Below are positions 1 to 20,116 of a stretch of DNA of 20,297 bases, in pieces (position 1 is the stretch's first letter; every line of letters begins with the position of its first letter). Under the pieces are notes generated by a model. The model made no database searches, had not been told where the DNA came from, and was given only the letters and a program-made list of their open reading frames with translations. Made by a program: the position numbers and the translations under genes. The stretch is from UHGV virus genome UHGV-0082109; one strand, given 5' to 3'. The stretch comes from a virus.

Positions 1-21
1 GATATAAAATTTATAAAGGTA

Positions 22-40
22 AATGCAAATCATTTGCATT
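22..40. promoter_or_regulatory. Perfect 19-bp palindrome (aatgcaaat-c-atttgcatt) about 20 bp upstream of the first cassette-A gene; candidate operator
   Basis: Read directly: 9-bp arms 22-30 and 32-40 are exact reverse complements around c31. A 1-nt spacer cannot form an RNA hairpin loop, so a dimeric DNA-binding site is more likely than a terminator. SD-like GGAG at 48-51 and ATG at 60 follow. Confidence 0.3.
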
Positions 41-59
41 ATGAAATGGAGATTAATTT

Positions 60-650
60 ATGAAATTATTAAAATATATCTTTAAGAGAGTTGTAGGAGT
101 AATACCCATTTTGATAATAATATCATTTGTATCATTTGGGCTTATGAATTTAGCACCAGGAGATCCGGCAGAAGCAATATTGACTTCTCAGGGAGCTGTT
201 GTAACATCAGAAGTTTTAGAAAGCACTAGGGTAGAGATGGGATTAGACAAACCTTTTTTAGTACAATATCTAAATTGGATGAAAAATTGCTTAAAAGGAG
301 ATTTTGGCATTTCCTATTCTACAGGGGTATCGGTAAAGGAAGAGTTATTTAAGCATTTACCATATACCATAACACTTACAGCCACAGCCATGGCTATAAC
401 TATACTTGTTTCGATTCCCATTGGAATAATAGCAGCAATTAATAAAGATAAATTTATAGATTCTATAATAAAAGATCCTAAGGTTAAAACTAGCGGATTG
501 AATGATAGTGAGATCTTGGAAAAGGGCGTTAATACAGTTTCTGGTCTTTTGAATCATATAAACACAATTGATAAGAGTTATCTCGATAAGCTAAAGAGAA
601 AATACGGAAATACGATTGTCGATATGCTTTTTTACAAGAATGTAAATTAA
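60..650 (+). CDS. 2-TM membrane protein: N-terminal half of an OppB/DppB-type peptide ABC permease, with a hydrophilic ~70-aa tail replacing the remaining TM segments
   Basis: ORF of 196 aa with GGAG 8 nt upstream of the ATG. The N-terminus (KYIFKRVVGVIPILIIISFVSFGLMNLAPGDP ... GLDKP ... QYLNW ... GDFGISY ... LPYTITLTATAMAITILVSIPIGIIAAINK) matches the conserved N-terminal pattern of OppB/DppB permeases as I recall it. Two hydrophobic helices (about aa 11-31 and 100-127). After aa ~130 the sequence is hydrophilic and unlike a permease. AT-rich codon usage. Confidence 0.5.
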   Translation: MKLLKYIFKRVVGVIPILIIISFVSFGLMNLAPGDPAEAILTSQGAVVTSEVLESTRVEMGLDKPFLVQYLNWMKNCLKGDFGISYSTGVSVKEELFKHLPYTITLTATAMAITILVSIPIGIIAAINKDKFIDSIIKDPKVKTSGLNDSEILEKGVNTVSGLLNHINTIDKSYLDKLKRKYGNTIVDMLFYKNVN

Positions 651-651
651 A

Positions 652-2004
652 ATGAAAATAAATATTGAGATCTCGAAAATCCAGCATGTTGAACATATGT
701 CATTTGCTATTGATCTTTCTGAAAATAAACTGACTTGCATTGTAGGAAAGAACGGTGCTGGAAAGACAACGCTAATCAAAGCAATTAAAAATTTACAATC
801 AGCAGATACATTCATAAAGACATCTTCTAGATATATATTCAATCCTGACAGTAGTATAGTATATAATATTAATGATCAAGATATAGTATATGTCTATGAT
901 GAGAATTTGAAGGTAATAGATACTAAGCAAATAATTCCAGCAGATATAAAATCCAATCTTTATGTCGAGTTGCCCATTCCTCATGGAATGAGGTTCAATA
1001 ACTTCCCAACACTTAGTAAAATTGATACTGAACTTAGAAAAAGTATTGCGTTTGAAAGCTATAGCGTTCCCGAGGATTTGATAAATATACTCAATGAGGT
1101 ATATCAGTCTTCTTCTTACAATAATCTTAAAGCATTTTCTGTAAAAAATGAAATTTTCTATTTCAGATTGAATGAGAACGGAACATACATAAGGGAGGAT
1201 TACTTTAGCTCGGGTGAGTATTTTATTTTGAATTTATTTAGAATGATTGAGCTCAAAAGAAAATTCATTGTCATAGATGAGATAGATATATCACTAGACT
1301 CTTCGGCGCAAGTCCATCTTATAGCAGTGCTAAGGAAATATTGTCAGAGACACTCGGTGAATATTGTATTCACAACACATTCACTTGCTTTAATGCAAAC
1401 GCTGAATGATGATGAATTGTACTATATGTGCGAAGGTGATGCTGGAACTACAATTACAAATCGATCATATAATTATATAAAAAGTACGCTTTTTGGATTT
1501 AAAGGATGGGATAAGTACATTCTTACTGAAGATGAAGTTCTGCAAAATTTCTTAGAATATATAATTAATGCTCCTGGGAATGATTACTTCTACGAATATA
1601 AAATAATATATGTTGGTGGAGGAACTAATGTCATTGATTTAATGCGTCGTAATGAGAGAGAGAGCTTTCTCACGACTCAACAGAATGTGATCTCAGTGTT
1701 AGACGGAGATCAATTAGGTCAAAGGTATGCTCGAGGTGAAAATATTTTATGCATACCTTTCCAAAGCGTTGAGAAGGATTTCTATCAAGCATACGGCCAA
1801 GATGAATCGATCCCGAGAGTTACAACTAGAGGTAACGATAAACTTGATAAGCAAGTTTATCGAGGGGTAGTGAAAACCTATAACAACGGCTGGGATGAAA
1901 CTAGGATTTTTGAGTACCTTGAGAGGTTAAAGCCTGATGAATGTGAGGCTTTCAGGCAAAAAATTAGAGCATTTCTCCAAAGAAATATTTCGGCAGAGGG
2001 TTGA
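652..2004 (+). CDS. ABC-type (AAA_15/AAA_21-like) ATPase with a C-terminal Toprim-like domain; OLD-family-like nuclease candidate
   Basis: ORF of 450 aa whose ATG lies 1 nt after the upstream stop (TAA-a-ATG), so likely coupled. Walker A GKNGAGKTT (aa 32-40, nt 745-771); signature-like SSGE (aa 186-189); Walker B FIVIDE (aa 205-210); H-loop-like TTHS (aa 241-244). C-terminal ILTEDEV (aa 290-296), VGGGTN (aa 321-326) and LDGDQ (aa 350-354, nt 1702-1710) are spaced like the Toprim E / G-rich / DxD motifs of OLD-family proteins. It sits where P2 carries old, just left of cos. Confidence 0.7.
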   Translation: MKINIEISKIQHVEHMSFAIDLSENKLTCIVGKNGAGKTTLIKAIKNLQSADTFIKTSSRYIFNPDSSIVYNINDQDIVYVYDENLKVIDTKQIIPADIKSNLYVELPIPHGMRFNNFPTLSKIDTELRKSIAFESYSVPEDLINILNEVYQSSSYNNLKAFSVKNEIFYFRLNENGTYIREDYFSSGEYFILNLFRMIELKRKFIVIDEIDISLDSSAQVHLIAVLRKYCQRHSVNIVFTTHSLALMQTLNDDELYYMCEGDAGTTITNRSYNYIKSTLFGFKGWDKYILTEDEVLQNFLEYIINAPGNDYFYEYKIIYVGGGTNVIDLMRRNERESFLTTQQNVISVLDGDQLGQRYARGENILCIPFQSVEKDFYQAYGQDESIPRVTTRGNDKLDKQVYRGVVKTYNNGWDETRIFEYLERLKPDECEAFRQKIRAFLQRNISAEG

Positions 2005-2146
2005 ATATAAGCTTCGGGATCTCATGCCTCTCTATCTGCATGAAATTGCATTTGATAATTCCTATTTTTCTCGTGAACTGTGTCACGTTAGGCGCAGCTC
2101 AGGGCTCATAATGCATCTGCATTAAAACCGCCCCACGAAGCGGGCG

Positions 2147-2165
2147 GGCGAGGCGGGGAAAGCAC
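2147..2165. other. cos: Putative P2-type cos site (19-nt cohesive-end sequence GGCGAGGCGGGGAAAGCAC)
   Basis: Exact match to the P2 cohesive-end sequence as I remember it, lying in a short GC-rich patch between two AT-rich islands and about 2.1 kb from the end of portal gene Q. The following bases (CTGCGCGCT) also match my recollection of the P2 left end before diverging. Confidence 0.6.
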
Positions 2166-2371
2166 TGCGCGCTCCATTAACGACCATTGCATAATACTAT
2201 TAGCCTATGAATCGAGTCATGAGATGTTATCTTTACGATTCAGGCGAGTGCTTTCGTTACGATGAGTTGGTTTAAGCACACTATCTGCACAAAAAATAAT
2301 CTGTTGAAGCGATTCATCATTCCTAACGCTCTAGAGTCTTAAATAAAAATATGTAAAATGCGTAAAATTTT

Positions 2372-3472
2372 TTGAATTATGGATCAGCTATGCTTGGAAC
2401 TTCATCACAAAGAGCTATTTCAGTACAACATGTTGATTTAAATGTAAAGTGTTGGGTCGTTAGACCTGGGATTAAGTATAGATATTTTGCAGACTTCCTT
2501 GAACGCAATATGGTTGCTACTGCTCACTTGGATAGGTTAAGTCCAGATCAAATTGACTTTAATGATGAAATTAACCATGAAAATATTAATCAAAAGGTTG
2601 ATGGGTTAGATACTATTGGTTCAAGAAATATTCATACCCAAATTGAAAATTTCCTCATAGATATGCAGGTCGGTGATGTTGTTTTCACTTTGTCAGGTGA
2701 TATGGTTGTTCCTGGAGTTATTGCATCTTCCGCGTATTTTGAGCGTGAATGTTTAGGTAATAATGAAGGGTTTCATGTAAGACGTAGAGTCACATGGGGA
2801 GAGCCAGTTCGCAGACGAGAGATTCCATTAGCTCTTCAGAAATCGTTTACTGCATACCAGACCGTATTCTCTTTGGGCGGGAAGTCAGAAGAAGTACTGC
2901 ATTGGTTAATGTCATTCTTTATAACGGATAATATTTTCTGTACTAGCTTAAGAGTCGAGCAAGCAGAAGCCATTCGGCATCATACTCTTAAGCAGCTGGC
3001 TGAGCTGGTCGATAGAGTGCAGGTACTTGCGCTATTAATTGGCGAAGAGTTTGATGGCGAGTATACAAACGAAGTTGTTCAGTTTGAGATGGAAAGACTT
3101 TCTAATAATGGAGAGTTATCCTTGACTGCTCAACAAATGTTGATGTCTCCGGGGGATGTTTGGCTACAATTTAAAACAAATAATAGAAAGGCCGGAATTG
3201 CGTTTATGTTAATTATGGGGGCCATTTTTAATCATGATGTAGCCTTCGCTTCAACGGTTGATAATCGTATAAGTGAGGAACTTCGATCTCATATTGAAGG
3301 GAAAAAAGAGGTTGCAATGGATGGATTAAACTTTGATAGAGTTTCTCAAGTTCTAGAGTTGCGTTTAAAAAGACAAAATAGAGGCTTTGTTTCTGCTCGT
3401 CCAACGAACCGTGAGATCGGACAGGGGATCAATTTCCCTGAAGATGGTGATGCGAGGCATGCGAGTGACTAA
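2372..3472 (+). CDS. Hypothetical protein, no recognisable catalytic motif; first gene of cassette B
   Basis: ORF of 366 aa. The track start at 2372 is a TTG; the first ATG is at 2390 (MLGTSSQ...), and neither has a strong SD, so the start is uncertain. AT-rich at the 5' end. No Walker A, HExxH, GxSxG, HNH-like Cys/His pattern or HEPN Rx4-6H was found by eye. Stop TAA at 3470-3472 sits 2 nt before the next ATG. Confidence 0.55.
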   Translation: MNYGSAMLGTSSQRAISVQHVDLNVKCWVVRPGIKYRYFADFLERNMVATAHLDRLSPDQIDFNDEINHENINQKVDGLDTIGSRNIHTQIENFLIDMQVGDVVFTLSGDMVVPGVIASSAYFERECLGNNEGFHVRRRVTWGEPVRRREIPLALQKSFTAYQTVFSLGGKSEEVLHWLMSFFITDNIFCTSLRVEQAEAIRHHTLKQLAELVDRVQVLALLIGEEFDGEYTNEVVQFEMERLSNNGELSLTAQQMLMSPGDVWLQFKTNNRKAGIAFMLIMGAIFNHDVAFASTVDNRISEELRSHIEGKKEVAMDGLNFDRVSQVLELRLKRQNRGFVSARPTNREIGQGINFPEDGDARHASD

Positions 3473-3474
3473 CT

Positions 3475-4164
3475 ATGAACTTTGAATTTGTAAAAGAACA
3501 CTGGCTGATAATAGGCATGCTATTCATAGCATGTCTATTATTAATTTTAAAATTCAAAGATATTTACAGAACACACGATCAGTTTAATAACGTCGTGATG
3601 TCATTGTGCGCTGTTTTGACACTTGTGTGGGGAGGATATACTTTTGATGTTTTGCACCAAAGGGATAAGGCAGAAGCTGATCTTATAGAGTTAAGAAATA
3701 GAATTAGAAATACAGAATCGACATTTTTTAATGTTGACGTTAATGTTGTTAAAATCGATGATGTGTTTTATATAAAGCCTATTGTAACTATTAGGAATAA
3801 CAGTAATGAGCGAATTTATGTGAAGCTTAATAACAAGTCCCTTGCTGTTAGTCGTGTTTTATCGGCCGGTGCAAAGCAAGTCGCTACGGAAGTTTTTTAT
3901 CCAAATTATTATGAGGAGTTGGCTGTTCTTAATGAAGAAAGTAGCTCGCAAGGAAAAGCTAAAAATATACCTTTATATGATATATCCGTTCCTATCTCTG
4001 CCGAAAGACGCTTGAACTATCTTGTTTCGACAAAAGAAAAAGGAATGTATTATGTAACATTTAGTGCTGAGGCAATGAACGAAGATGGCTCGCCTGTTTC
4101 TAAATACATAAATGGGAAAAAATCTATATGGTTTTCTTCTTCATATATTGAAGTTAAAGATTGA
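3475..4164 (+). CDS. 2-TM membrane protein with a ~170-aa C-terminal soluble domain; candidate effector of cassette B
   Basis: ORF of 229 aa, coupled to the upstream gene. Hydrophobic helices WLIIGMLFIACLLLILKF (aa ~10-27) and VVMSLCAVLTLVWGGYTF (aa ~40-57), followed by a hydrophilic, beta-rich region. AT-rich. Confidence 0.6.
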   Translation: MNFEFVKEHWLIIGMLFIACLLLILKFKDIYRTHDQFNNVVMSLCAVLTLVWGGYTFDVLHQRDKAEADLIELRNRIRNTESTFFNVDVNVVKIDDVFYIKPIVTIRNNSNERIYVKLNNKSLAVSRVLSAGAKQVATEVFYPNYYEELAVLNEESSSQGKAKNIPLYDISVPISAERRLNYLVSTKEKGMYYVTFSAEAMNEDGSPVSKYINGKKSIWFSSSYIEVKD

Positions 4165-4231
4165 ATTTCTATTAAACCATATAGTAATTGAAGGTGTTGG
4201 GGGTTAATCTTGCCTGGATTGCATAGAATCA

Positions 4232-12559: not shown

Positions 12560-12989
12560 TGCCGTCACGGTGCTGAAAACCAGTCCCGAGATGCTGCGGA
12601 TATTCGTGGATAACGGGAGTATTGCCTCCACACTGGCGGCGTCGTTGTCATTCGAAAAGCGTTACACGCTCAATGTGATTGTGACCGACTTTACCGGTGA
12701 TTTTGACCTGCTCATCGTGCCGGTGCTGGCGTGGCTGCGGGAAAATCAGCCCGACATCATGACCACCGACGAAGGCCAGAAAAAGGGCTTCACGTTTTAT
12801 GCAGACATCAACAATGACAGCAGCTTTGATATCAGCATCAGCCTGATGCTGACCGAGCGCACGCTGGTCAGTGAGGTGGACGGCGCGCTGCATGTGAAGA
12901 ATATCCCGGAACCCCCGCCGCCGGAGCCGGTCACCCGCCCGATGGAGCTGTATATCAATGGCGAACTGGTGAGCAAGTGGGATGAATGA
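12522..12989 (+). CDS. R: Tail completion protein, P2 gpR-like
   Basis: 155 aa (MLKPDSLRRALTDAVTVLKTSPEMLRIFVDNGSIAS...), matching the P2 gpR length and sequence from memory. Confidence 0.9.
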   Translation: MLKPDSLRRALTDAVTVLKTSPEMLRIFVDNGSIASTLAASLSFEKRYTLNVIVTDFTGDFDLLIVPVLAWLRENQPDIMTTDEGQKKGFTFYADINNDSSFDISISLMLTERTLVSEVDGALHVKNIPEPPPPEPVTRPMELYINGELVSKWDE

Positions 12990-13434
12990 GTTTAAGCGTT
13001 TTGAAGACCGGCTGACCGGACTGATTGAATCGCTGTCACCGTCAGGGCGTCGGCGACTGAGTGCCGAACTGGCGAAACGTCTGCGGCAGAGTCAGCAGCG
13101 TCGGGTGATGGCACAGAAAGCCCCGGACGGCACACCCTACGTGCCACGCCAGCAGCAGAGCGCCAGAAAAAAGACCGGTCGCGTTAAGCGAAAAATGTTT
13201 GCGAAACTTATCACCAGTCGTTTTTTGCATATCCGCGCCAGCCCGGAACAGGCATCAATGGAGTTTTACGGCGGAAAGTCACCGAAAATCGCCAGTGTGC
13301 ATCAGTTCGGTCTGTCGGAAGAAAACCGGAAAGACGGTAAGAAAATTGATTATCCGGCGCGTCCTCTGCTCGGCTTTACCGGTGAGGATGTGCAGATGAT
13401 TGAAGAGATTATTCTGGCTCACCTGAATCGCTAG
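12982..13434 (+). CDS. S: Tail completion protein, P2 gpS-like
   Basis: 150 aa (MNEFKRFEDRLTGLIESLSPSGRRRLSAELAKRLRQ...), overlapping the R stop. Matches P2 gpS from memory. Confidence 0.9.
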   Translation: MNEFKRFEDRLTGLIESLSPSGRRRLSAELAKRLRQSQQRRVMAQKAPDGTPYVPRQQQSARKKTGRVKRKMFAKLITSRFLHIRASPEQASMEFYGGKSPKIASVHQFGLSEENRKDGKKIDYPARPLLGFTGEDVQMIEEIILAHLNR

Positions 13435-13511
13435 CTTTATTGATCTGAGAATATAAGAATGAAATTATTTGATTTAGTATGATTTATTTTGAATCTTTAC
13501 GTTAATAAATA

Positions 13512-13536
13512 AAAGGCCAGTTATTGGCCTTTTATC
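13512..13536. terminator. Bidirectional rho-independent terminator (aaaggcca-gttat-tggccttt flanked by A-run and T-run)
   Basis: An 8-bp perfect stem with a 5-nt loop, read directly. It has a T-tract on the + side (ending the K...S operon) and an A-tract upstream (a U-tract for the minus-strand gene ending at 13538). Confidence 0.6.
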
Positions 13537-13537
13537 A

Positions 13538-14611
13538 TTACTTGCCATTTTTCAATGCGTTGATTAACGATGCTATTTGTTCAATACCATCAAATGTAGA
13601 TGGTATCTTATCATCGGATAGCATGATGTTTGAAAATACTACGTCTTCAAATTTTGAAAGCGCTTCCGGATTGTTTTTCCTTATCTCTGAGGAATAGTCG
13701 CTATAACTCTGAATGAACTGACAAAGGCTCTTTCTGAGTTCTATTTGCATAATCTGAGTTCGTAACGATATATGATTTATCAGTACAACTCTAAAGTAAT
13801 ACATGAAAATCAATGTAACTGATGCAAAAGGTAGTGCTGACATAAAATATGTGGCAGCATTTGTCGTTTCGAGAGTTGGTAATTTATGCATTCCATAGTA
13901 TATCAGCGGGGAGGGAATGATTATAGCCAAGATGATAAGAATTATTCTTGATAGCATGATTTCACTTTCTTTCTTTTTGCCAAGTGAATTAAAGCCATCA
14001 AACAATCCAACAAAATTAAATGCGACCTCATACCCTTTTAATGACTCTTTAATTGACTCTATTTTGGCATGTTGCTCCTTTAAGAAGGAGTCGCACTTTT
14101 CGAAAAATTGACGCCCTTCGTTTAAACTATCAATGTATTTTTTATATGTGTCAACATTGCTGGAGCTTAAAACTTCTTTAACCATTGCTAATGGCAGTTC
14201 TCTAAGAGAAAAGTCTATCTGTGCTCTGCTCCGCTCATCGAATTCATTATAGTTATACAGAGCAAAATCCTTGATGGTTCTTAGTGGTGAAAAGTGAGAC
14301 TCTATTTCCGGAGAGAGAATGCTTGGTTCAATGATAAATCTAAAAAAGCAAGTGAATATAAGGTTGATGCTGTTGTTATCTTCTCCCTTTTCTCTTAAGA
14401 AACTTTTAAAGGTGTCGCCAATCATAGCAATGTTGTACTGGGATTTTTTGTCCCAATCTTCAGGGTTTTCGGAAATGAAGTTTATTGCTTGAGCAATTAT
14501 TTTGTTTCTGTTTGATTCAAAGTTTGTGCTGGGAGTCAGCGTGTTCAAAAAGACCAGATAATCTTTGAACAATTCTTTCATTGTTTCTGACGAGAAAAAG
14601 TAAGTACTCAT
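13538..14611 (-). CDS. AT-rich accessory membrane protein in the S-V intergenic slot (soluble N-terminal domain, two central/C-terminal TM helices); function unknown
   Basis: Minus-strand ORF. The track start at 14707 would overlap the V start and the GC-rich phage DNA. The first ATG inside the AT-rich DNA is at 14609-14611 (MSTYFFSSETMKELF...) and gives 357 aa; an alternative ATG (MKELF) lies 30 nt further in, and the SD is weak for both. Hydrophobic segments are IILIILAIIIPSPLIYYG and ATYFMSALPFASVTLIFMYYF. The stop abuts the terminator hairpin. Confidence 0.6.
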   Translation of the reverse strand: MSTYFFSSETMKELFKDYLVFLNTLTPSTNFESNRNKIIAQAINFISENPEDWDKKSQYNIAMIGDTFKSFLREKGEDNNSINLIFTCFFRFIIEPSILSPEIESHFSPLRTIKDFALYNYNEFDERSRAQIDFSLRELPLAMVKEVLSSSNVDTYKKYIDSLNEGRQFFEKCDSFLKEQHAKIESIKESLKGYEVAFNFVGLFDGFNSLGKKKESEIMLSRIILIILAIIIPSPLIYYGMHKLPTLETTNAATYFMSALPFASVTLIFMYYFRVVLINHISLRTQIMQIELRKSLCQFIQSYSDYSSEIRKNNPEALSKFEDVVFSNIMLSDDKIPSTFDGIEQIASLINALKNGK

Positions 14612-14697
14612 AATGGATTTTGTTGTCCCTTGTTGTTCTGTGCACCAGAAATCGTGGTGTGATTTACTTCGAGATTGTACAGAATCATTATTATCGA
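14612..14697. promoter_or_regulatory. Region upstream of V; expected location of the late promoter P_V by analogy with P2
   Basis: Position only. It contains a short dyad (cacca-gaaatcg-tggtg) but was not verified against the TGT-N12-ACA consensus. Confidence 0.3.
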
Positions 14698-15327
14698 ATG
14701 AATGCACAATACAATGAAATTCTTCGCTTTATACGCAATATGATTCGCACTGGCATTATCGTCGAAACCGACCTTAATGCCGGTCGCTGCCGTGTGCAGA
14801 CCGGCGGCATGTGCACCGACTGGCTTCAGTGGCTGACCCATCGCGCCGGACGTTCGCGCACATGGTGGGCACCTTCCGTGGGGGAACAGGTGCTGATTCT
14901 GGCCGTGGGCGGTGAACTCGACACGGCGTTCGTTCTGCCGGGGATTTATTCCGGCGATAACCCCGCGCCGTCTACGTCGGCGGATGCCCTGCATATCCGT
15001 TTCCCTGACGGGGCGGTGATTGAGTATGAACCCGAAACCAGTGCACTCACGGTAAGCGGAATTAAAACGGCCAGCGTGACGGCTTCTGATTCTGTTACTG
15101 CCACGGTGCCGGTGGTCATGGTGAAAGCGTCAACCCGCATCACCCTGGACACACCGGAGGTGGTCTGCACCAACAGGCTGATTACCGGCACGCTGGAAGT
15201 GCAGAAGGGCGGGACGATGCGCGGCAACATTGAACACACCGGCGGTGAACTCTCATCAAACGGTAAGGTACTGCATACCCATAAACACCCCGGCGACAGC
15301 GGCGGCACAACCGGGGGACCTCTATGA
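14698..15327 (+). CDS. V: Baseplate spike/central hub protein, P2 gpV-like
   Basis: The ATG at 14698 (MNAQYNEILRFIRNMIRTGIIVETDLNAGRCRVQTGGMCTDWLQ...) gives ~209 aa, close to the P2 gpV length. The track ORF from 14620 is an alternative-start extension. The exact start is uncertain because no clear SD is present. Confidence 0.88.
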   Translation: MNAQYNEILRFIRNMIRTGIIVETDLNAGRCRVQTGGMCTDWLQWLTHRAGRSRTWWAPSVGEQVLILAVGGELDTAFVLPGIYSGDNPAPSTSADALHIRFPDGAVIEYEPETSALTVSGIKTASVTASDSVTATVPVVMVKASTRITLDTPEVVCTNRLITGTLEVQKGGTMRGNIEHTGGELSSNGKVLHTHKHPGDSGGTTGGPL

Positions 15328-17117: not shown

Positions 17118-19367
17118 ATGAGCACAAAATTCAGAACCGTTATCACCACTGCCGGTGCAGCAAAGCTGGCAGCGGCAACCGCACCGGGAGGGCGGAAGGT
17201 CAACATTACCACGATGGCCGTCGGGGATGGCGGTGGTAAATTGCCTGTCCCGGATGCCGGACAGACCGGGCTTATCCATGAAGTCTGGCGACATGCGCTG
17301 AACAAAATCAGCCAGGACAAACGAAACAGTAATTATATTATCGCAGAGCTGGTTATTCCGCCGGAGGTGGGCGGTTTCTGGATGCGTGAGCTTGGCCTGT
17401 ACGATGATGCGGGAACGCTAATTGCCGTGGCGAACATGGCCGAAAGTTATAAGCCTGCCCTTGCCGAAGGCTCAGGGCGTTCGCAGACCTGCCGCATGGT
17501 CATCATCGTCAGCAGTGTGGCCTCAGTGGAGCTGACCATTGACACCACAACGGTGATGGCGACGCAGGATTACGTTGATGACAAAATTGCAGAGCACGAA
17601 CAGTCACGACGTCACCCGGACGCCTCGCTGACCGCAAAAGGTTTTACTCAGTTAAGCAGTGCGACCAACAGCACGTCTGAAACACTGGCCGCAACGCCGA
17701 AAGCGGTAAAGGCCGCTTATGATCTTGCTAACGGGAAATATACCGCGCAGGATGCCACCACAGCGCGAAAAGGCCTTGTCCAGCTCAGTAGCGCCACCAA
17801 TAGCGATTCTGAAACGCTTGCGGCAACGCCAAAGGCGGTAAAGGCAGCATATGACCTCGCTAACGGGAAATATACCGCACAGGATGCCACCACCGCGCGA
17901 AAAGGTCTTGTCCAGCTAAGTAGCGCCACCAACAGCGATTCTGAAACGCTGGCCGCAACGCCAAAGGCGGTTAAGACAGCGTATGACCTTGCTAACGGGA
18001 AATACACTGCACAGGATGCCACCACCGCGCGGAAAGGCCTTGTCCAGCTCAGTAGCGCCACCAACAGTGATTCTGAAACGCAGGCCGCAACACCAAAAGC
18101 GGTGAAGTCTGCCTATGACAATGCTGAAAAACGTCTTCAGAAAGATCAGAACGGTGCGGATATTCCTGATAAAGGACGCTTCCTGAGTAACATTAATGTT
18201 TACAGCAAAGGTGAAGTGGATAAGAAAAAGGGAATGCGAAAGTATTCGTTTGCAGCCCCTGCAAATGTCGTTGCCGGGAAGTGGTATCCCGTTATCTTTC
18301 GCCGTGCTGCCAGCCTTTCAGGAGAAATGGCATCCCGCGTCGTTATTTCCACTGGTTGTTATAACAGCGATTATGTAATGAATAACTGCGAGTTTAATGG
18401 CATGGTTATGCCCGGAGGCTGGACTGATCGTGGTTCATATGCGGCAGGTTATTTCTGGACGTATCAGACTAATGAGCGTTCAATCCATTCCATTGTTACA
18501 AGCCTGAAAGATGATGATGTATGTAGTGTTTTTTATGTTGAAGCCAGAGCTTTCCCTGTGCAAATTCTTGCAGAGGAAGGGCTAACGGTTATTGTTCCGA
18601 CAGAGGATTATGTCGTCGGTCAAACGACATATAAGTGGGGGGCAACTAATCCTGCTACAGAAAGCACGAACGCACAGGCTATTCTGGATTTTAAAAATGG
18701 GCGCGGTTATTACTGCTCACATCCATTTATTTCCAGCCTTTCGGGAAATGCTGCAACAGCAACGAAGTTAGCGAACGCAAGAAATATTAATGGTGTCAGA
18801 TTTGATGGCTCTGCTGATATAAATATTAATACACTGGTATCCAGAAACCGTGTTACTGCATTAGGTGGGAGCGTAAAGGGGACACCAGGTATTCAGATGT
18901 ATGAGGCATACAACAATGGCTACCCAACAGCCTATGGTAATGTGCTTCATCTCACTGGCGTAACCGCAGTAGGAGAGGGTGAGTTACTTATTGGCTGGAG
19001 TGGAACCAGCGGTGCTCATGCTCCGGCATATATTCGCTCCCGACGAGATACCACAGATGCTAACTGGTCTGGATGGGCGCAACTATATACAACTGCTCAT
19101 AAACCCTCAGCGGGAGATGTTGGTGCATACACCAAAGCTGAATCAGATTCACGTTATGTGAGAGACATGCGGCTGGGCGGTGCATCTACATATAAACCAG
19201 CAAATAATGGTACTACATGGACGCATCAGGCTCCGCCAGGTTGCGTATATACCGGTATTATTGTTCAGGATACCGGCTCAAACTCTGCCGATAACATTGG
19301 TGGCGTATATTACAGACCGGTGCAGAAATACATTAACGGGACATGGTATAACGTGGCGCAGGTATAA
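17118..19367 (+). CDS. H: Tail fibre protein, P2 gpH-like, with an expanded internal repeat array and a divergent C-terminal receptor-binding region
   Basis: 749 aa, against 669 aa for P2 gpH from memory. The N-terminus (MSTKFRTVITTAGAAKLAAATAPGGRKVNITTMAVGDGGGKLP...) is conserved. GTGAGGA upstream. Confidence 0.93.
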   Translation: MSTKFRTVITTAGAAKLAAATAPGGRKVNITTMAVGDGGGKLPVPDAGQTGLIHEVWRHALNKISQDKRNSNYIIAELVIPPEVGGFWMRELGLYDDAGTLIAVANMAESYKPALAEGSGRSQTCRMVIIVSSVASVELTIDTTTVMATQDYVDDKIAEHEQSRRHPDASLTAKGFTQLSSATNSTSETLAATPKAVKAAYDLANGKYTAQDATTARKGLVQLSSATNSDSETLAATPKAVKAAYDLANGKYTAQDATTARKGLVQLSSATNSDSETLAATPKAVKTAYDLANGKYTAQDATTARKGLVQLSSATNSDSETQAATPKAVKSAYDNAEKRLQKDQNGADIPDKGRFLSNINVYSKGEVDKKKGMRKYSFAAPANVVAGKWYPVIFRRAASLSGEMASRVVISTGCYNSDYVMNNCEFNGMVMPGGWTDRGSYAAGYFWTYQTNERSIHSIVTSLKDDDVCSVFYVEARAFPVQILAEEGLTVIVPTEDYVVGQTTYKWGATNPATESTNAQAILDFKNGRGYYCSHPFISSLSGNAATATKLANARNINGVRFDGSADININTLVSRNRVTALGGSVKGTPGIQMYEAYNNGYPTAYGNVLHLTGVTAVGEGELLIGWSGTSGAHAPAYIRSRRDTTDANWSGWAQLYTTAHKPSAGDVGAYTKAESDSRYVRDMRLGGASTYKPANNGTTWTHQAPPGCVYTGIIVQDTGSNSADNIGGVYYRPVQKYINGTWYNVAQV
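17649..18125 (+). repeat. About 3.6 tandem copies of a 132-bp (44-aa) in-frame repeat inside H (QLSSATNS[T/D]SETLAATPKAVK[A/T]AYDLANGKYTAQDATTARKGLV)
   Basis: Read directly: the CAG codon of the QLSS motif recurs at 17649, 17781, 17913 and 18045, a period of 132 bp. Copies differ mainly at synonymous positions, and the fourth copy diverges after ~25 aa. Confidence 0.8.
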
Positions 19368-19370
19368 TTT

Positions 19371-19898
19371 ATGCAGCATTTGATAAATATAACGGCAGGT
19401 AATCCAAAAACGGTTGAACAATATCAATTGACAAAGGAGTTTGATGTTGTCTGGTTTTTTACAGAAGATGGTAAGAACTGGTACGAAGAACAAAAGTATT
19501 TTGCTGATGACACGATAAAAATAGCGTACGACAAAGATAATATCATCCGCTATGTGGAAAAGGATGTGACAGCTATCAGACCGGATGGATTAAGTGTGGT
19601 TGAAGTGGCGGATATTACTGCTAACCGACGGGCGGACATTTCAGGGAACTGGATGTTTAAGGACGGCAAAGTGATTAAACGCATTTATACGGCAGAGGAA
19701 TTGCAGCAGCAGGCAGAAAATCGGAAAGCCAGACTTCTTGCAGATGCTGAATCCGTGATTTTGCCGCTGGAGCGTGCTGTCAGGCTAAATATGGCTACAG
19801 AGGAGGAGCGCAGCCGACTGGAAGCATGGGAACTCTATAGCGTTCTGGTCAGTCGTGTGGATCCTGCAAATCCTGAATGGCCAGAAATGCCGCAATAA
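19371..19898 (+). CDS. G: Tail fibre assembly chaperone, P2 gpG-like
   Basis: 175 aa ([40 protein letters not shown]...), immediately downstream of H. Lower GC than the backbone, as is usual for tail-fibre/chaperone modules. Confidence 0.88.
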
Positions 19899-19932
19899 GT
19901 TGTATGAGCTCTGGTGGGAGCCTACATATCTA

Positions 19933-19974
19933 TGGCACAGAGTAAAGCCTAATCTGACAGTCCGCTCTGTGCCA
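19933..19974. other. 10-bp inverted repeat (tggcacagag ... ctctgtgcca) with a 22-nt loop, downstream of G; possible terminator or module-boundary structure
   Basis: Read directly: arms at 19933-19942 and 19965-19974 are exact reverse complements. The long loop makes it an atypical intrinsic terminator. Confidence 0.3.
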
Positions 19975-20116
19975 AAAGCAGACATTGGATAAGTCTTTGT
20001 TACTTATAAGGCTACAATCCAGCTGATATGATAGACTGTTTAATAGCTAGTGTGTTAACAAGTCAAAAAATGTAGAATTTAGTTCCTAGCCACTTCTGAA
20101 TACATATGGATGCTGT

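Follow-up and report, generated by a model that had tools for sequence, protein, structure and literature searches.

An AT-rich gene between the tail genes S and V of a P2-like prophage belongs to a widespread family of predicted two-helix membrane proteins with a possible anti-phage role

What may be the function of a foreign-looking gene placed between two late operons of a P2-like phage and directed against both of them? The question is raised by the window analysed here, a stretch of 20,297 nucleotides from virus genome UHGV-0082109, in which gpS (tail completion, 12982–13434, plus strand), the final gene of the late O operon, and gpV (baseplate spike, 14698–15327, plus strand), the first gene of the V operon, are separated by 1,263 bp, counted from the gpS stop at 13434 to the gpV ATG at 14698. 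Both borders were taken from the list of open reading frames and coincide with the RefSeq annotation of a 99.8% identical prophage of E. coli LR-45, in which gpS is entered as “phage virion morphogenesis protein”. The earlier note, made from the letters of this DNA, had described here about 1.2 kb of AT-rich sequence with a single gene on the strand opposite to the late operons, and this description was confirmed: GC-content of the interval is 34.1% versus 56–60% in the structural genes on either side, and one minus-strand CDS was found in it, the same as in RefSeq. Base composition of the gene itself (34% GC) is also off that of the phage backbone (56–60%). The flanks of this slot share approximately 95–97% DNA identity with P2, while the similarity ends a few bases past the S stop codon, and the foreign segment begins with an AT-rich spacer (13435–13508), where GC-content drops from approximately 54% to approximately 32%.

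The cargo gene occupies positions 13538–14611 of the minus strand, with the stop codon at 13538–13540, and its translation is a 357-aa predicted inner-membrane protein of the phrog_9373 family. A longer frame with a GTG start (13538–14707, 389 aa), which overlaps the start of V, was ruled out and the ATG at 14611 preferred, since the latter is backed by an identical 1,074-nt CDS in RefSeq and by 42 homologues that align from the same methionine. On its 3′-side the gene adjoins a hairpin at positions 13509–13535, composed of an A-run, a GGCCAG stem and a T-run (AAAAGGCCAG-TTATT-GGCCTTTT). RNA folding of the two strands gave energies of −14.3 and −16.2 kcal/mol with z = −4.4 and −5.4, and none of 200 shuffled sequences folded as well. 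Because both an A-run and a T-run are present, the terminator is usable in both directions, and judging from its sequence this element most probably terminates both the O operon (plus strand) and the cargo gene (minus strand). A bidirectional terminator had been proposed before at 13512–13536; the structure was retained, its folding on both strands included, and the coordinates were corrected. A simple terminator scan overlooked this hairpin.

On the other side an 86-bp spacer (14612–14697) extends from the cargo ATG to the V ATG and, according to P2 annotation, motif sequences and alignment, holds the late promoter region of the V operon. The conserved TGTTGT at 14631–14636 lies 62–67 nt upstream of the V ATG, at a distance equal to that of the annotated Ogr activator site of P2, so that the start codon of the cargo gene is only 20 bp away from the activator site of the late promoter. 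In the alignment of nine P2-like loci the ACAAC motif, read on the cargo strand, is conserved and its AAC is invariant. A promoter of its own, active in the lysogen, had been considered probable for the gene in the earlier note, but the promoter scan of the 86-bp spacer registered nothing resembling a sigma-70 promoter on the cargo strand. A candidate found by manual inspection, TTCATT-N17-GATAAT (8/12), was rejected as too weak, and it extends into the coding sequence of V. Nothing credible was found in the segment by the Rfam search either (best E = 0.24, far under gathering).

The slot as such is not new. The supposition of the earlier note that P2 carries orf30 in the same place was verified from P2 annotation, according to which this gene occupies the same S–V position in the same opposite-strand orientation. 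Its other guess, that the membrane protein encoded here may be different from Orf30, was borne out by BLASTP, which gave no similarity (with Orf30, AAD03281, the best E = 1.3 over 16 residues, so homology was rejected), as well as by differing length and hydrophobic pattern. The locus had also been thought of as a third cargo slot. The presence of foreign-looking cargo at the orf30 locus stands, while its novelty does not, since in a passage of PMC3091744, citing Nilsson & Haggard-Ljungquist 2007, three loci of horizontally acquired genes are already listed for P2-like phages, namely the TO region, the Z region and orf30. A separate case in which orf30 was replaced by another gene is described in PMC6823313. 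Accessory loci of P2 are known to harbour defence genes (PMC9122126, PMC9519451, PMC13586616), and the prophage of the window also bears a type I-B retron in the cos-proximal hotspot. Unlike this hotspot, for which great diversity has been reported, the S–V slot in E. coli exists in few states. It is empty (about 66–72 bp) in Wphi, fiAA91-ss and pro483, and is empty in most of the E. coli prophages sampled; the cargo gene was found in 60 genomes versus 1,682 genomes matching the P2-like query region. Viable P2-like phages occur with and without this gene, which is dispensable for them.

What kind of protein is encoded by this dispensable gene? Kyte-Doolittle windows revealed two hydrophobic segments, at approximately aa 218–240 and 254–278, with Lys/Arg flanks. 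Such a pair predicts an N-in/C-in orientation, with a periplasmic loop of 11–13 residues. All parts of the protein are encoded on the minus strand. The N-terminal domain (aa 1–150, 14162–14611), predicted to be globular, all-helical and cytoplasmic, diverges fast and is a putative sensor; it is followed by a long helix or coiled-coil linker (aa 151–197, 14021–14161), which in the AF2 model is a helix spanning residues 153–197. The conserved juxtamembrane motif FNFVGLxxGFxxLGxxK (aa 198–216, 13964–14020; conservation 0.69) contains invariant N199, F200, L203, G206, F207, L210 and K214. Then come transmembrane helix 1 (aa 218–240, 13892–13960), with a hydropathy peak of 2.4, the short periplasmic loop (aa 241–253, 13853–13891), the conservation of which (0.21) is the lowest among all segments, and transmembrane helix 2 (aa 254–278, 13778–13852), assigned by hydropathy, with the motif YYFRVxLxN and invariant P261, Y271, F273 and R274. 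Both segments of this predicted hairpin are helical in the AF2 model, and both termini of the protein are predicted to be cytoplasmic. The chain ends with a cytoplasmic tail (aa 279–357, 13541–13777), which shows the highest conservation (0.72) and carries the motifs QIELRKSLCQFIQSY ... KFExxIFSNIM ... KIPSTFDGIEQ, with invariant Q289, R293, C297, E322 and PSTFDG; AF2 confidence is low at aa 330–357, within this most conserved segment. Column conservation is 0.44 for the N-domain versus 0.72 for the module composed of membrane part and tail. The combination of a variable cytoplasmic N-domain, a conserved membrane/tail module and a tiny, poorly conserved loop agrees with a membrane effector governed by intracellular sensing. 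The topology drawn earlier is preserved in its main outline (soluble N-part, two transmembrane helices and a C-terminal tail, now of 79 aa), except that the N-part comprises approximately 217 rather than 230 residues.

Recognisable motifs had not been seen in the product before, and searches in databases led to the same result. Scans against Pfam and NCBIfam gave no meaningful match for the cargo protein, no SLATT or other effector family of Pfam was matched at E ≤ 1, and 34 divergent members of the family gave neither a meaningful Pfam match nor, at E ≤ 0.01, one to such effector families. Among 5,027 models of PADLOC-DB v2.0.0, candidate families included, none was registered at E ≤ 1. The only PHROG match is phrog_9373 itself (E = 3e-134), whose function is unassigned, and annotated exclusion proteins in PHROGs showed no sequence relation to the cargo protein. 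The sequence-profile search against PDB returned nothing below E = 0.36. The Foldseek comparison suggested in the earlier note was run on predicted viral structures and yielded no match at E ≤ 1e-3, and the hits of fold searches as a whole were limited to helical hairpins and bundles of a generic kind. Near-identity to any protein with a known function outside defence, which according to the same note would speak against its reading, was not observed in these searches. The searchable literature, queried with the PHROG identifier and protein accessions, contains no experiments on any member of the family.

The family itself is large. Two homologue searches yielded 348 clusters and, at 50% identity, 923 clusters, and among the members listed nearly all have 350–370 aa and match from end to end. 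They were found in Gamma-, Beta- and Deltaproteobacteria, Nitrospirales, Bacteroidota and Campylobacterota. For members from Enterobacterales the S–V slot is the usual site, and it is occupied at just 36–50% identity in P2-like phages and prophages of Escherichia, Citrobacter, Pantoea, Yersinia, Erwinia, Pectobacterium, Rouxiella and Cronobacter. In a Klebsiella phage-plasmid the family member is a lone opposite-strand gene, one locus lies inside an integrase/AlpA/primase island, another one adjoins a putAbiC gene and resolvases, and in many phyla the genes reside in solitary chromosomal islets far from prophages. No conserved neighbour was found across 55 loci, which rules out a conserved partner gene and characterises the cargo as a single-gene unit. 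Ten large neighbours were sampled at loci outside phages, and eight of them could be recognised as genes unrelated to defence (GlnRS, PntB, Tex, U32 peptidase, ABC transporter, histidine kinase, FapA-like protein and Lon-like protease), while of the remaining two one has RTX repeats and the other has no match. PADLOC matches among these ten were limited to the ABC transporter and the kinase and were due to generic ATPase/kinase domains. As most of the ten belong to housekeeping functions and specific defence proteins are missing among them, this sample shows no guilt by association with defence islands.

Compositional bias and selection were also traced in the family. The gene exceeded its surroundings in AT-content at each of the 50 loci scored (those with sufficient flank), the difference between GC-content of gene and flank being −16 points on average and below −5 in 48 of the 50; such persistent AT-richness is a signature of mobile, xenogeneic genes. 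Among E. coli alleles dN/dS varies from 0.03 to 0.38 and the reading frame is intact in all alleles examined, which indicates purifying selection. Several fragments and pseudogenes of the family also exist. In Enterobacter ludwigii an intact cargo gene is located in a prophage stump of approximately 2.7 kb, composed of S, V and R fragments and lying between housekeeping genes. This arrangement is common in the species, and the remnant has no late regulators. The preservation of an intact gene in the decayed remnant suggests a benefit for the host and an expression independent of phage late regulators, so that transcription of the cargo gene may not require the phage at all.

Based on these data, the segment is best explained as a classical phage moron, that is a self-contained, horizontally acquired transcription unit at the orf30 locus, on the boundary between the O and V operons. 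As to its function, the reading that we favour, tentatively and at a strength still short of probable, is a stand-alone anti-phage protein, in which one polypeptide combines a cytoplasmic sensor with a membrane-hairpin effector and thereby excludes or aborts infection. The protein would be made in the lysogen and reside in the inner membrane with both ends in the cytoplasm, its helical N-domain being joined by the coiled-coil linker to the two-TM hairpin, flanked by the conserved juxtamembrane region and tail. The N-terminal domain may sense some component or consequence of infection, upon which the module of hairpin and tail would oligomerise and impair the inner membrane in the manner of abortive infection; alternatively, the infecting phage may be otherwise blocked at the membrane. 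A broader proposal, rather doubtful so far, regards the cargo as the founding member of a widespread class of single-gene immunity (923 clusters at 50% identity, many phyla, outside Pfam and PADLOC), in which some phage component would be recognised directly by a rapidly diversifying cytoplasmic domain, and the latter would gate a conserved two-helix depolarising or permeabilising module; this class would be kept at S–V by P2-like phages of Enterobacterales through deep divergence, and by hosts after prophage decay.

Other explanations should be weighed against the sensor–effector reading. Prophages are known to exclude superinfecting phages by inner-membrane proteins, and the exclusion morons HK97 gp15 and phi80/N15 cor are independent units among tail genes. 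The cargo, too, is a prophage-borne predicted inner-membrane protein encoded by a presumably independent unit among tail genes, and might act by strict superinfection exclusion of the P22 SieA, HK97 gp15 or T4 Imm type, blocking entry of the incoming genome in the lysogen with no killing of the cell; other accessory genes of P2, old, tin and fun, are all exclusion genes (PMC9519451). However, the only part of the protein exposed to the periplasm is the loop of 11–13 residues, the least conserved one, while the conserved mass is cytoplasmic; entry blockers adapted to particular phages are not usually met as solitary chromosomal islets across phyla, and no relation to the annotated exclusion proteins of PHROGs was seen. 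With this set of features strict exclusion looks quite improbable. A membrane protein of lysogenic conversion or host fitness, engaged in envelope stress, transport or signalling, or a helper of the phage cycle, for instance in lysis timing or membrane remodelling, is also unlikely, if slightly less so: the gene is dispensable and most of the sampled E. coli prophages do without it, while patchy distribution and steady AT-richness are typical of conflict genes. Moreover, the antisense orientation relative to the late operons, together with insulation by the terminator, argues against participation in the lytic programme of the phage.

The least credible alternative is a selfish membrane toxin, which by addiction or stabilisation would secure the retention of any element carrying it, with an antidote that escaped recognition, for example an RNA encoded in cis, or autoinhibition. 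The segment has neither a partner gene nor an Rfam RNA, in its 357 aa and large folded domain the protein differs from type I toxins, and the degraded copies of the family occur with no obvious linked loss, all of which makes an addiction module very improbable.

Neither the slot nor the anatomy of the moron, nor the missing annotation, will surprise a specialist in P2. Yet the A–Q (old/tin) and Z/fun loci of P2-like prophages have already given many new defence systems, while orf30 was ignored. All features tested mark the cargo as a mobile, selected, single-gene unit, which is therefore cheap to test experimentally. Should it be a defence gene, it would represent a new family of membrane effectors, and the S–V junction would become the third defence slot; if not, it marks a widespread membrane function borne by prophages.

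Among known systems the nearest in position is orf30 of P2, which resembles the cargo gene in place, strand, GC-content (34% each), non-essentiality and membrane nature of the product, as well as in its setting between the O-operon terminator and the late promoter PV. However, Orf30 has 261 rather than 357 aa and three dispersed hydrophobic segments instead of a two-TM hairpin after a large cytoplasmic domain, and the likeness says nothing on mechanism. Alpha pore-formers and translocators with a coiled coil and a helical hairpin (XaxA/PaxB/YaxA, IpaB) were matched with a non-significant E-value and with scores such as any long helical hairpin gives, prefoldin and designed hairpins scoring equally high; they are secreted toxins, whereas the cargo protein lacks a signal peptide and is predicted to be N-in/C-in. 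P22 SieA, HK97 gp15 and T4 Imm are similar to it as inner-membrane proteins of prophages encoded amid morphogenesis genes, by independent units as presumed also for the cargo, but the cargo protein is much larger, nearly all its conserved residues are cytoplasmic or intramembrane, and its family is widespread outside phages. Two-TM effectors of abortive infection, as in lambda RexA/RexB, CBASS/Pycsar, SLATT and retrons, differ from the cargo in that it has no Pfam or PADLOC match to any of them and no linked cyclase, SMODS or RexA-like sensor or signal partner in the 55 loci. In architecture it seems to resemble these effectors, combining a cytoplasmic domain with a short helical TM module, and it shares with them carriage by prophages and mobile elements, patchy distribution and AT-richness.

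The window comes from a Peduovirus (P2-like) prophage carried by Escherichia coli. Its 1,263-bp segment between the end of gpS (13434) and the start of gpV (14698) is 99.8% identical to a prophage of E. coli strain LR-45, which adjoins pflB and focA and has the complete P2 gene order, and the flanks of this segment are approximately 95–98% identical to P2, Wphi and their relatives. The GC content of the S-V interval is 34%, versus 56–60% in the structural genes on both sides, and the interval contains a single minus-strand gene (CDS 13538–14611), referred to here as the cargo gene. A mechanically called ORF extends it to a GTG at 14707, overlapping V; this start was rejected, since both RefSeq and the alignment of 42 homologues place initiation at the ATG at 14611, giving a 357-aa product. 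The stop codon is followed directly on its 3′ side by a hairpin (13509–13535) that has an A-run and a T-run. Its fold is strong on either strand (z = −4.4 and −5.4), so that transcription of both the cargo gene and the late O operon can terminate here. According to hydropathy, transmembrane segments occupy residues about 218–240 and 254–278, and basic residues flanking this pair on its outer sides imply that both termini are cytoplasmic, with a predicted periplasmic loop of 11–13 residues. The description of the segment in the earlier note (S and V borders, GC content, minus-strand gene, hairpin and two transmembrane segments) was thus confirmed with small corrections. A promoter scan of the spacer upstream of the cargo gene identified none. 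In E. coli strain 222, carrying the commonest E. coli allele (locus L084, 302–1345), RefSeq starts the gene 30 nt downstream, leaving a 1,044-nt CDS; the ATG of other genomes is intact there, and the shorter CDS reflects inconsistent annotation rather than biology.

It was also proposed that P2 carries orf30 at the same position and that the S-V junction forms a third cargo slot. The first statement is borne out by the P2 annotation, where orf30 (261 aa, non-essential, opposite strand) is flanked by the annotated terminator of the O operon and by the site at which Ogr activates the V promoter. The slot is also real but not new, being already listed in the literature: TO region, Z region and orf30 are the three sites of horizontally acquired genes in P2-like phages (PMC3091744), and in phage R18C a 741-bp ORF replaces orf30 (PMC6823313). 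Papers on defence hotspots concern the A-Q and Z/fun loci, one of them also loosely mentioning positions “within the tail genes” or “downstream of GpL” (PMC13586616), and none of them names orf30 or the S-V junction. In Wphi only 66 bp separate S from V. A 5-kb query across the region matched 1,682 of 5,426 complete E. coli genomes, 60 of which (of the 1,682) have the cargo gene. In an evenly spaced sample of these matches most slots are empty (about 72 bp) and roughly a quarter contain orf30, while other states are the cargo gene, a 246-aa soluble protein encoded on the plus strand and one IS21 insertion under the match. An IS21-family element, ISEc12 (istA/istB), is annotated somewhere under that match (H72; NZ_CP082085.1, 2242554–2248949, E. 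coli MS20653), which is ~2.6 kb longer than the empty-slot type. The gene for the 246-aa protein (L013, 1853–2593, E. coli GPEC1356) shares its strand with the late genes, has 36% GC and encodes Cys-rich motifs with weak, sub-threshold matches to HNH and Endonuclease I; its 741 bp equal the length of the R18C ORF.

Within the 86 bp between the cargo and V start codons, TGTTGT is kept 62–67 nt upstream of V, at the same distance as in the annotated activator site of P2, so that the insertion respects the operon boundary. Eight other strains and species conserve this motif in their P2-like loci. By its anatomy the segment fits a moron sitting at a permissive boundary between operons, and an AT-rich opposite-strand moron in this known slot is an ordinary element for P2-like phages.

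Other parts of the prophage also deviate in composition. The cos-proximal hotspot (A-Q, old/tin; 1–4200, 30–40% GC) contains the 3′-terminal part of a reverse transcriptase gene from a type I-B retron (60–650), its ATPase-Toprim partner (652–2004; PADLOC E = 3e-179), an ORF weakly matching candidate family PDC-S02 (2372–3472) and an ORF with no match (3475–4164). The last two seem to be extra cargo, because in the otherwise near-identical LR-45 prophage the portal gene follows the ATPase almost directly. At 18000–20000 the GC content drops to 44–48% in the 3′ part of the tail-fibre gene (17118–19367) and in the tail-fibre assembly gene (19371–19898), which could reflect mosaic exchange of host-range modules.

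The cargo protein is unrelated to Orf30, as the earlier note had considered possible; Orf30 is hydrophobic too, but has three dispersed segments instead of two transmembrane ones. The absence of a recognisable motif was upheld by Pfam, NCBIfam and PADLOC, none of which gave a match, and the sole match in the family databases scanned was phrog_9373, of unknown function. A word-indexed search returned 348 homologues, and when 1.84 billion representatives were searched exhaustively with a profile, 923 clusters were returned (671 below 1e-30); among the matches listed, nearly all of 150 clusters are 350–370 aa long and match end to end. No Pfam domain was found in 34 divergent members, and the family profile found nothing in PDB. 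The AlphaFold2 model is all-helical, with a globular N-terminal domain (confident when modelled alone, pLDDT 93, pTM 0.89), a long helix, a hairpin and a helical tail. Conservation peaks in the juxtamembrane motif FNFVGLxxGFxxLGxxK, in TM2 (YYFRVxLxN) and in the C-terminal tail (QIELRKSLCQFIQSY ... KIPSTFDG). Variation is far greater in the N-domain, some full-length relatives keeping the architecture with an N-terminal half beyond tblastn detection, and conservation is lowest in the periplasmic loop. Loci L065, L071, L076, L079 and L080 contain C-terminal fragments only (ORFs of 70–171 aa; TM2 plus tail, or tail alone), which are the result of decay or else represent the conserved module in short stand-alone form.

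Where Enterobacterales carry the gene, it usually occupies the opposite strand of the S-V slot in a P2-like element; a Buttiauxella chromosomal locus and an Enterobacter ludwigii remnant were the exceptions found. This location holds at only 36–50% identity to the E. coli protein, in Citrobacter, Pantoea, the viable Yersinia phage vB_YenM_31.17, Erwinia, Pectobacterium, Rouxiella and Cronobacter. In the P2-like prophage of Pectobacterium zantedeschiae (L018, 7056–7997) gpS and the cargo gene lie ~950 bp apart, versus 5–11 bp in Erwinia and Rouxiella, and the slot may house a second cargo gene. In E. ludwigii an intact 354-aa homologue stands between chromosomal housekeeping genes in a ~2.7 kb prophage remnant (L087, 5560–8223; L088, 563–2346) together only with a 44-residue gpS piece, broken gpV (aa 1–29 and 39–189) and a gpR scrap, bordered by a chemoreceptor gene on one side and ECF-sigma and DsbD genes on the other. 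The arrangement is common in this species (84 blocks of the collection list the protein); here a P2-like prophage decayed around a gene that was kept. Klebsiella phage-plasmids of about 110 kb (pJN2-26; also CP058330, CP101890, CP101896) encode a distant 388-aa homologue (26–28% identity; L085, 3572–4738) sharing the FNFV motif, the two-TM hairpin and the IPSxxDG tail, as a lone opposite-strand gene between ligase and primase genes (34% GC versus 50% in the flanks). Outside P2-like elements the family occurs in Gamma-, Beta- and Deltaproteobacteria, Nitrospirales, Bacteroidota and Campylobacterota. No conserved neighbour gene was found across its loci; large neighbours sampled were mostly housekeeping genes. 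At one locus the gene lies in an integrase/AlpA/primase island, and at another its neighbours are resolvases and a putAbiC gene. Fifty loci had sufficient flanking sequence for a comparison of base composition, and in every one the gene exceeds its surroundings in AT content regardless of host GC (mean GC difference −16 points). E. coli alleles keep the reading frame intact with dN/dS of 0.03–0.38.

In its behaviour the family resembles a mobile single-gene unit that is under selection and benefits its carrier. What is new is the placement of the cargo in a family that is very large, widely distributed and unannotated, consistently bears marks of mobility and selection, and is tied to the S-V slot across enterobacterial genera despite deep sequence divergence. 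This membership makes it a good and cheap experimental candidate, which would not surprise specialists. Weak points of an anti-phage reading are that PADLOC registered no similarity to known defence proteins, that large neighbours sampled outside mobile elements gave no association with defence islands, that the promoter scan identified none and that no experiment on any family member was found in the literature. An entry-blocking exclusion protein, a membrane function unrelated to defence and a selfish toxin all rank behind a stand-alone anti-phage protein, which would sense infection in the cytoplasm and then act on the inner membrane. We hold this anti-phage function only tentatively, at somewhat less than even chances, and it is rather doubtful that the family represents a new widespread class of single-gene membrane immunity. 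The anti-phage function is favoured because the family moves and is selected as a single gene, because its conserved portions are almost all predicted to be cytoplasmic or lie inside the membrane, and because its layout of conserved and variable parts resembles that of sensor-effector immune proteins.
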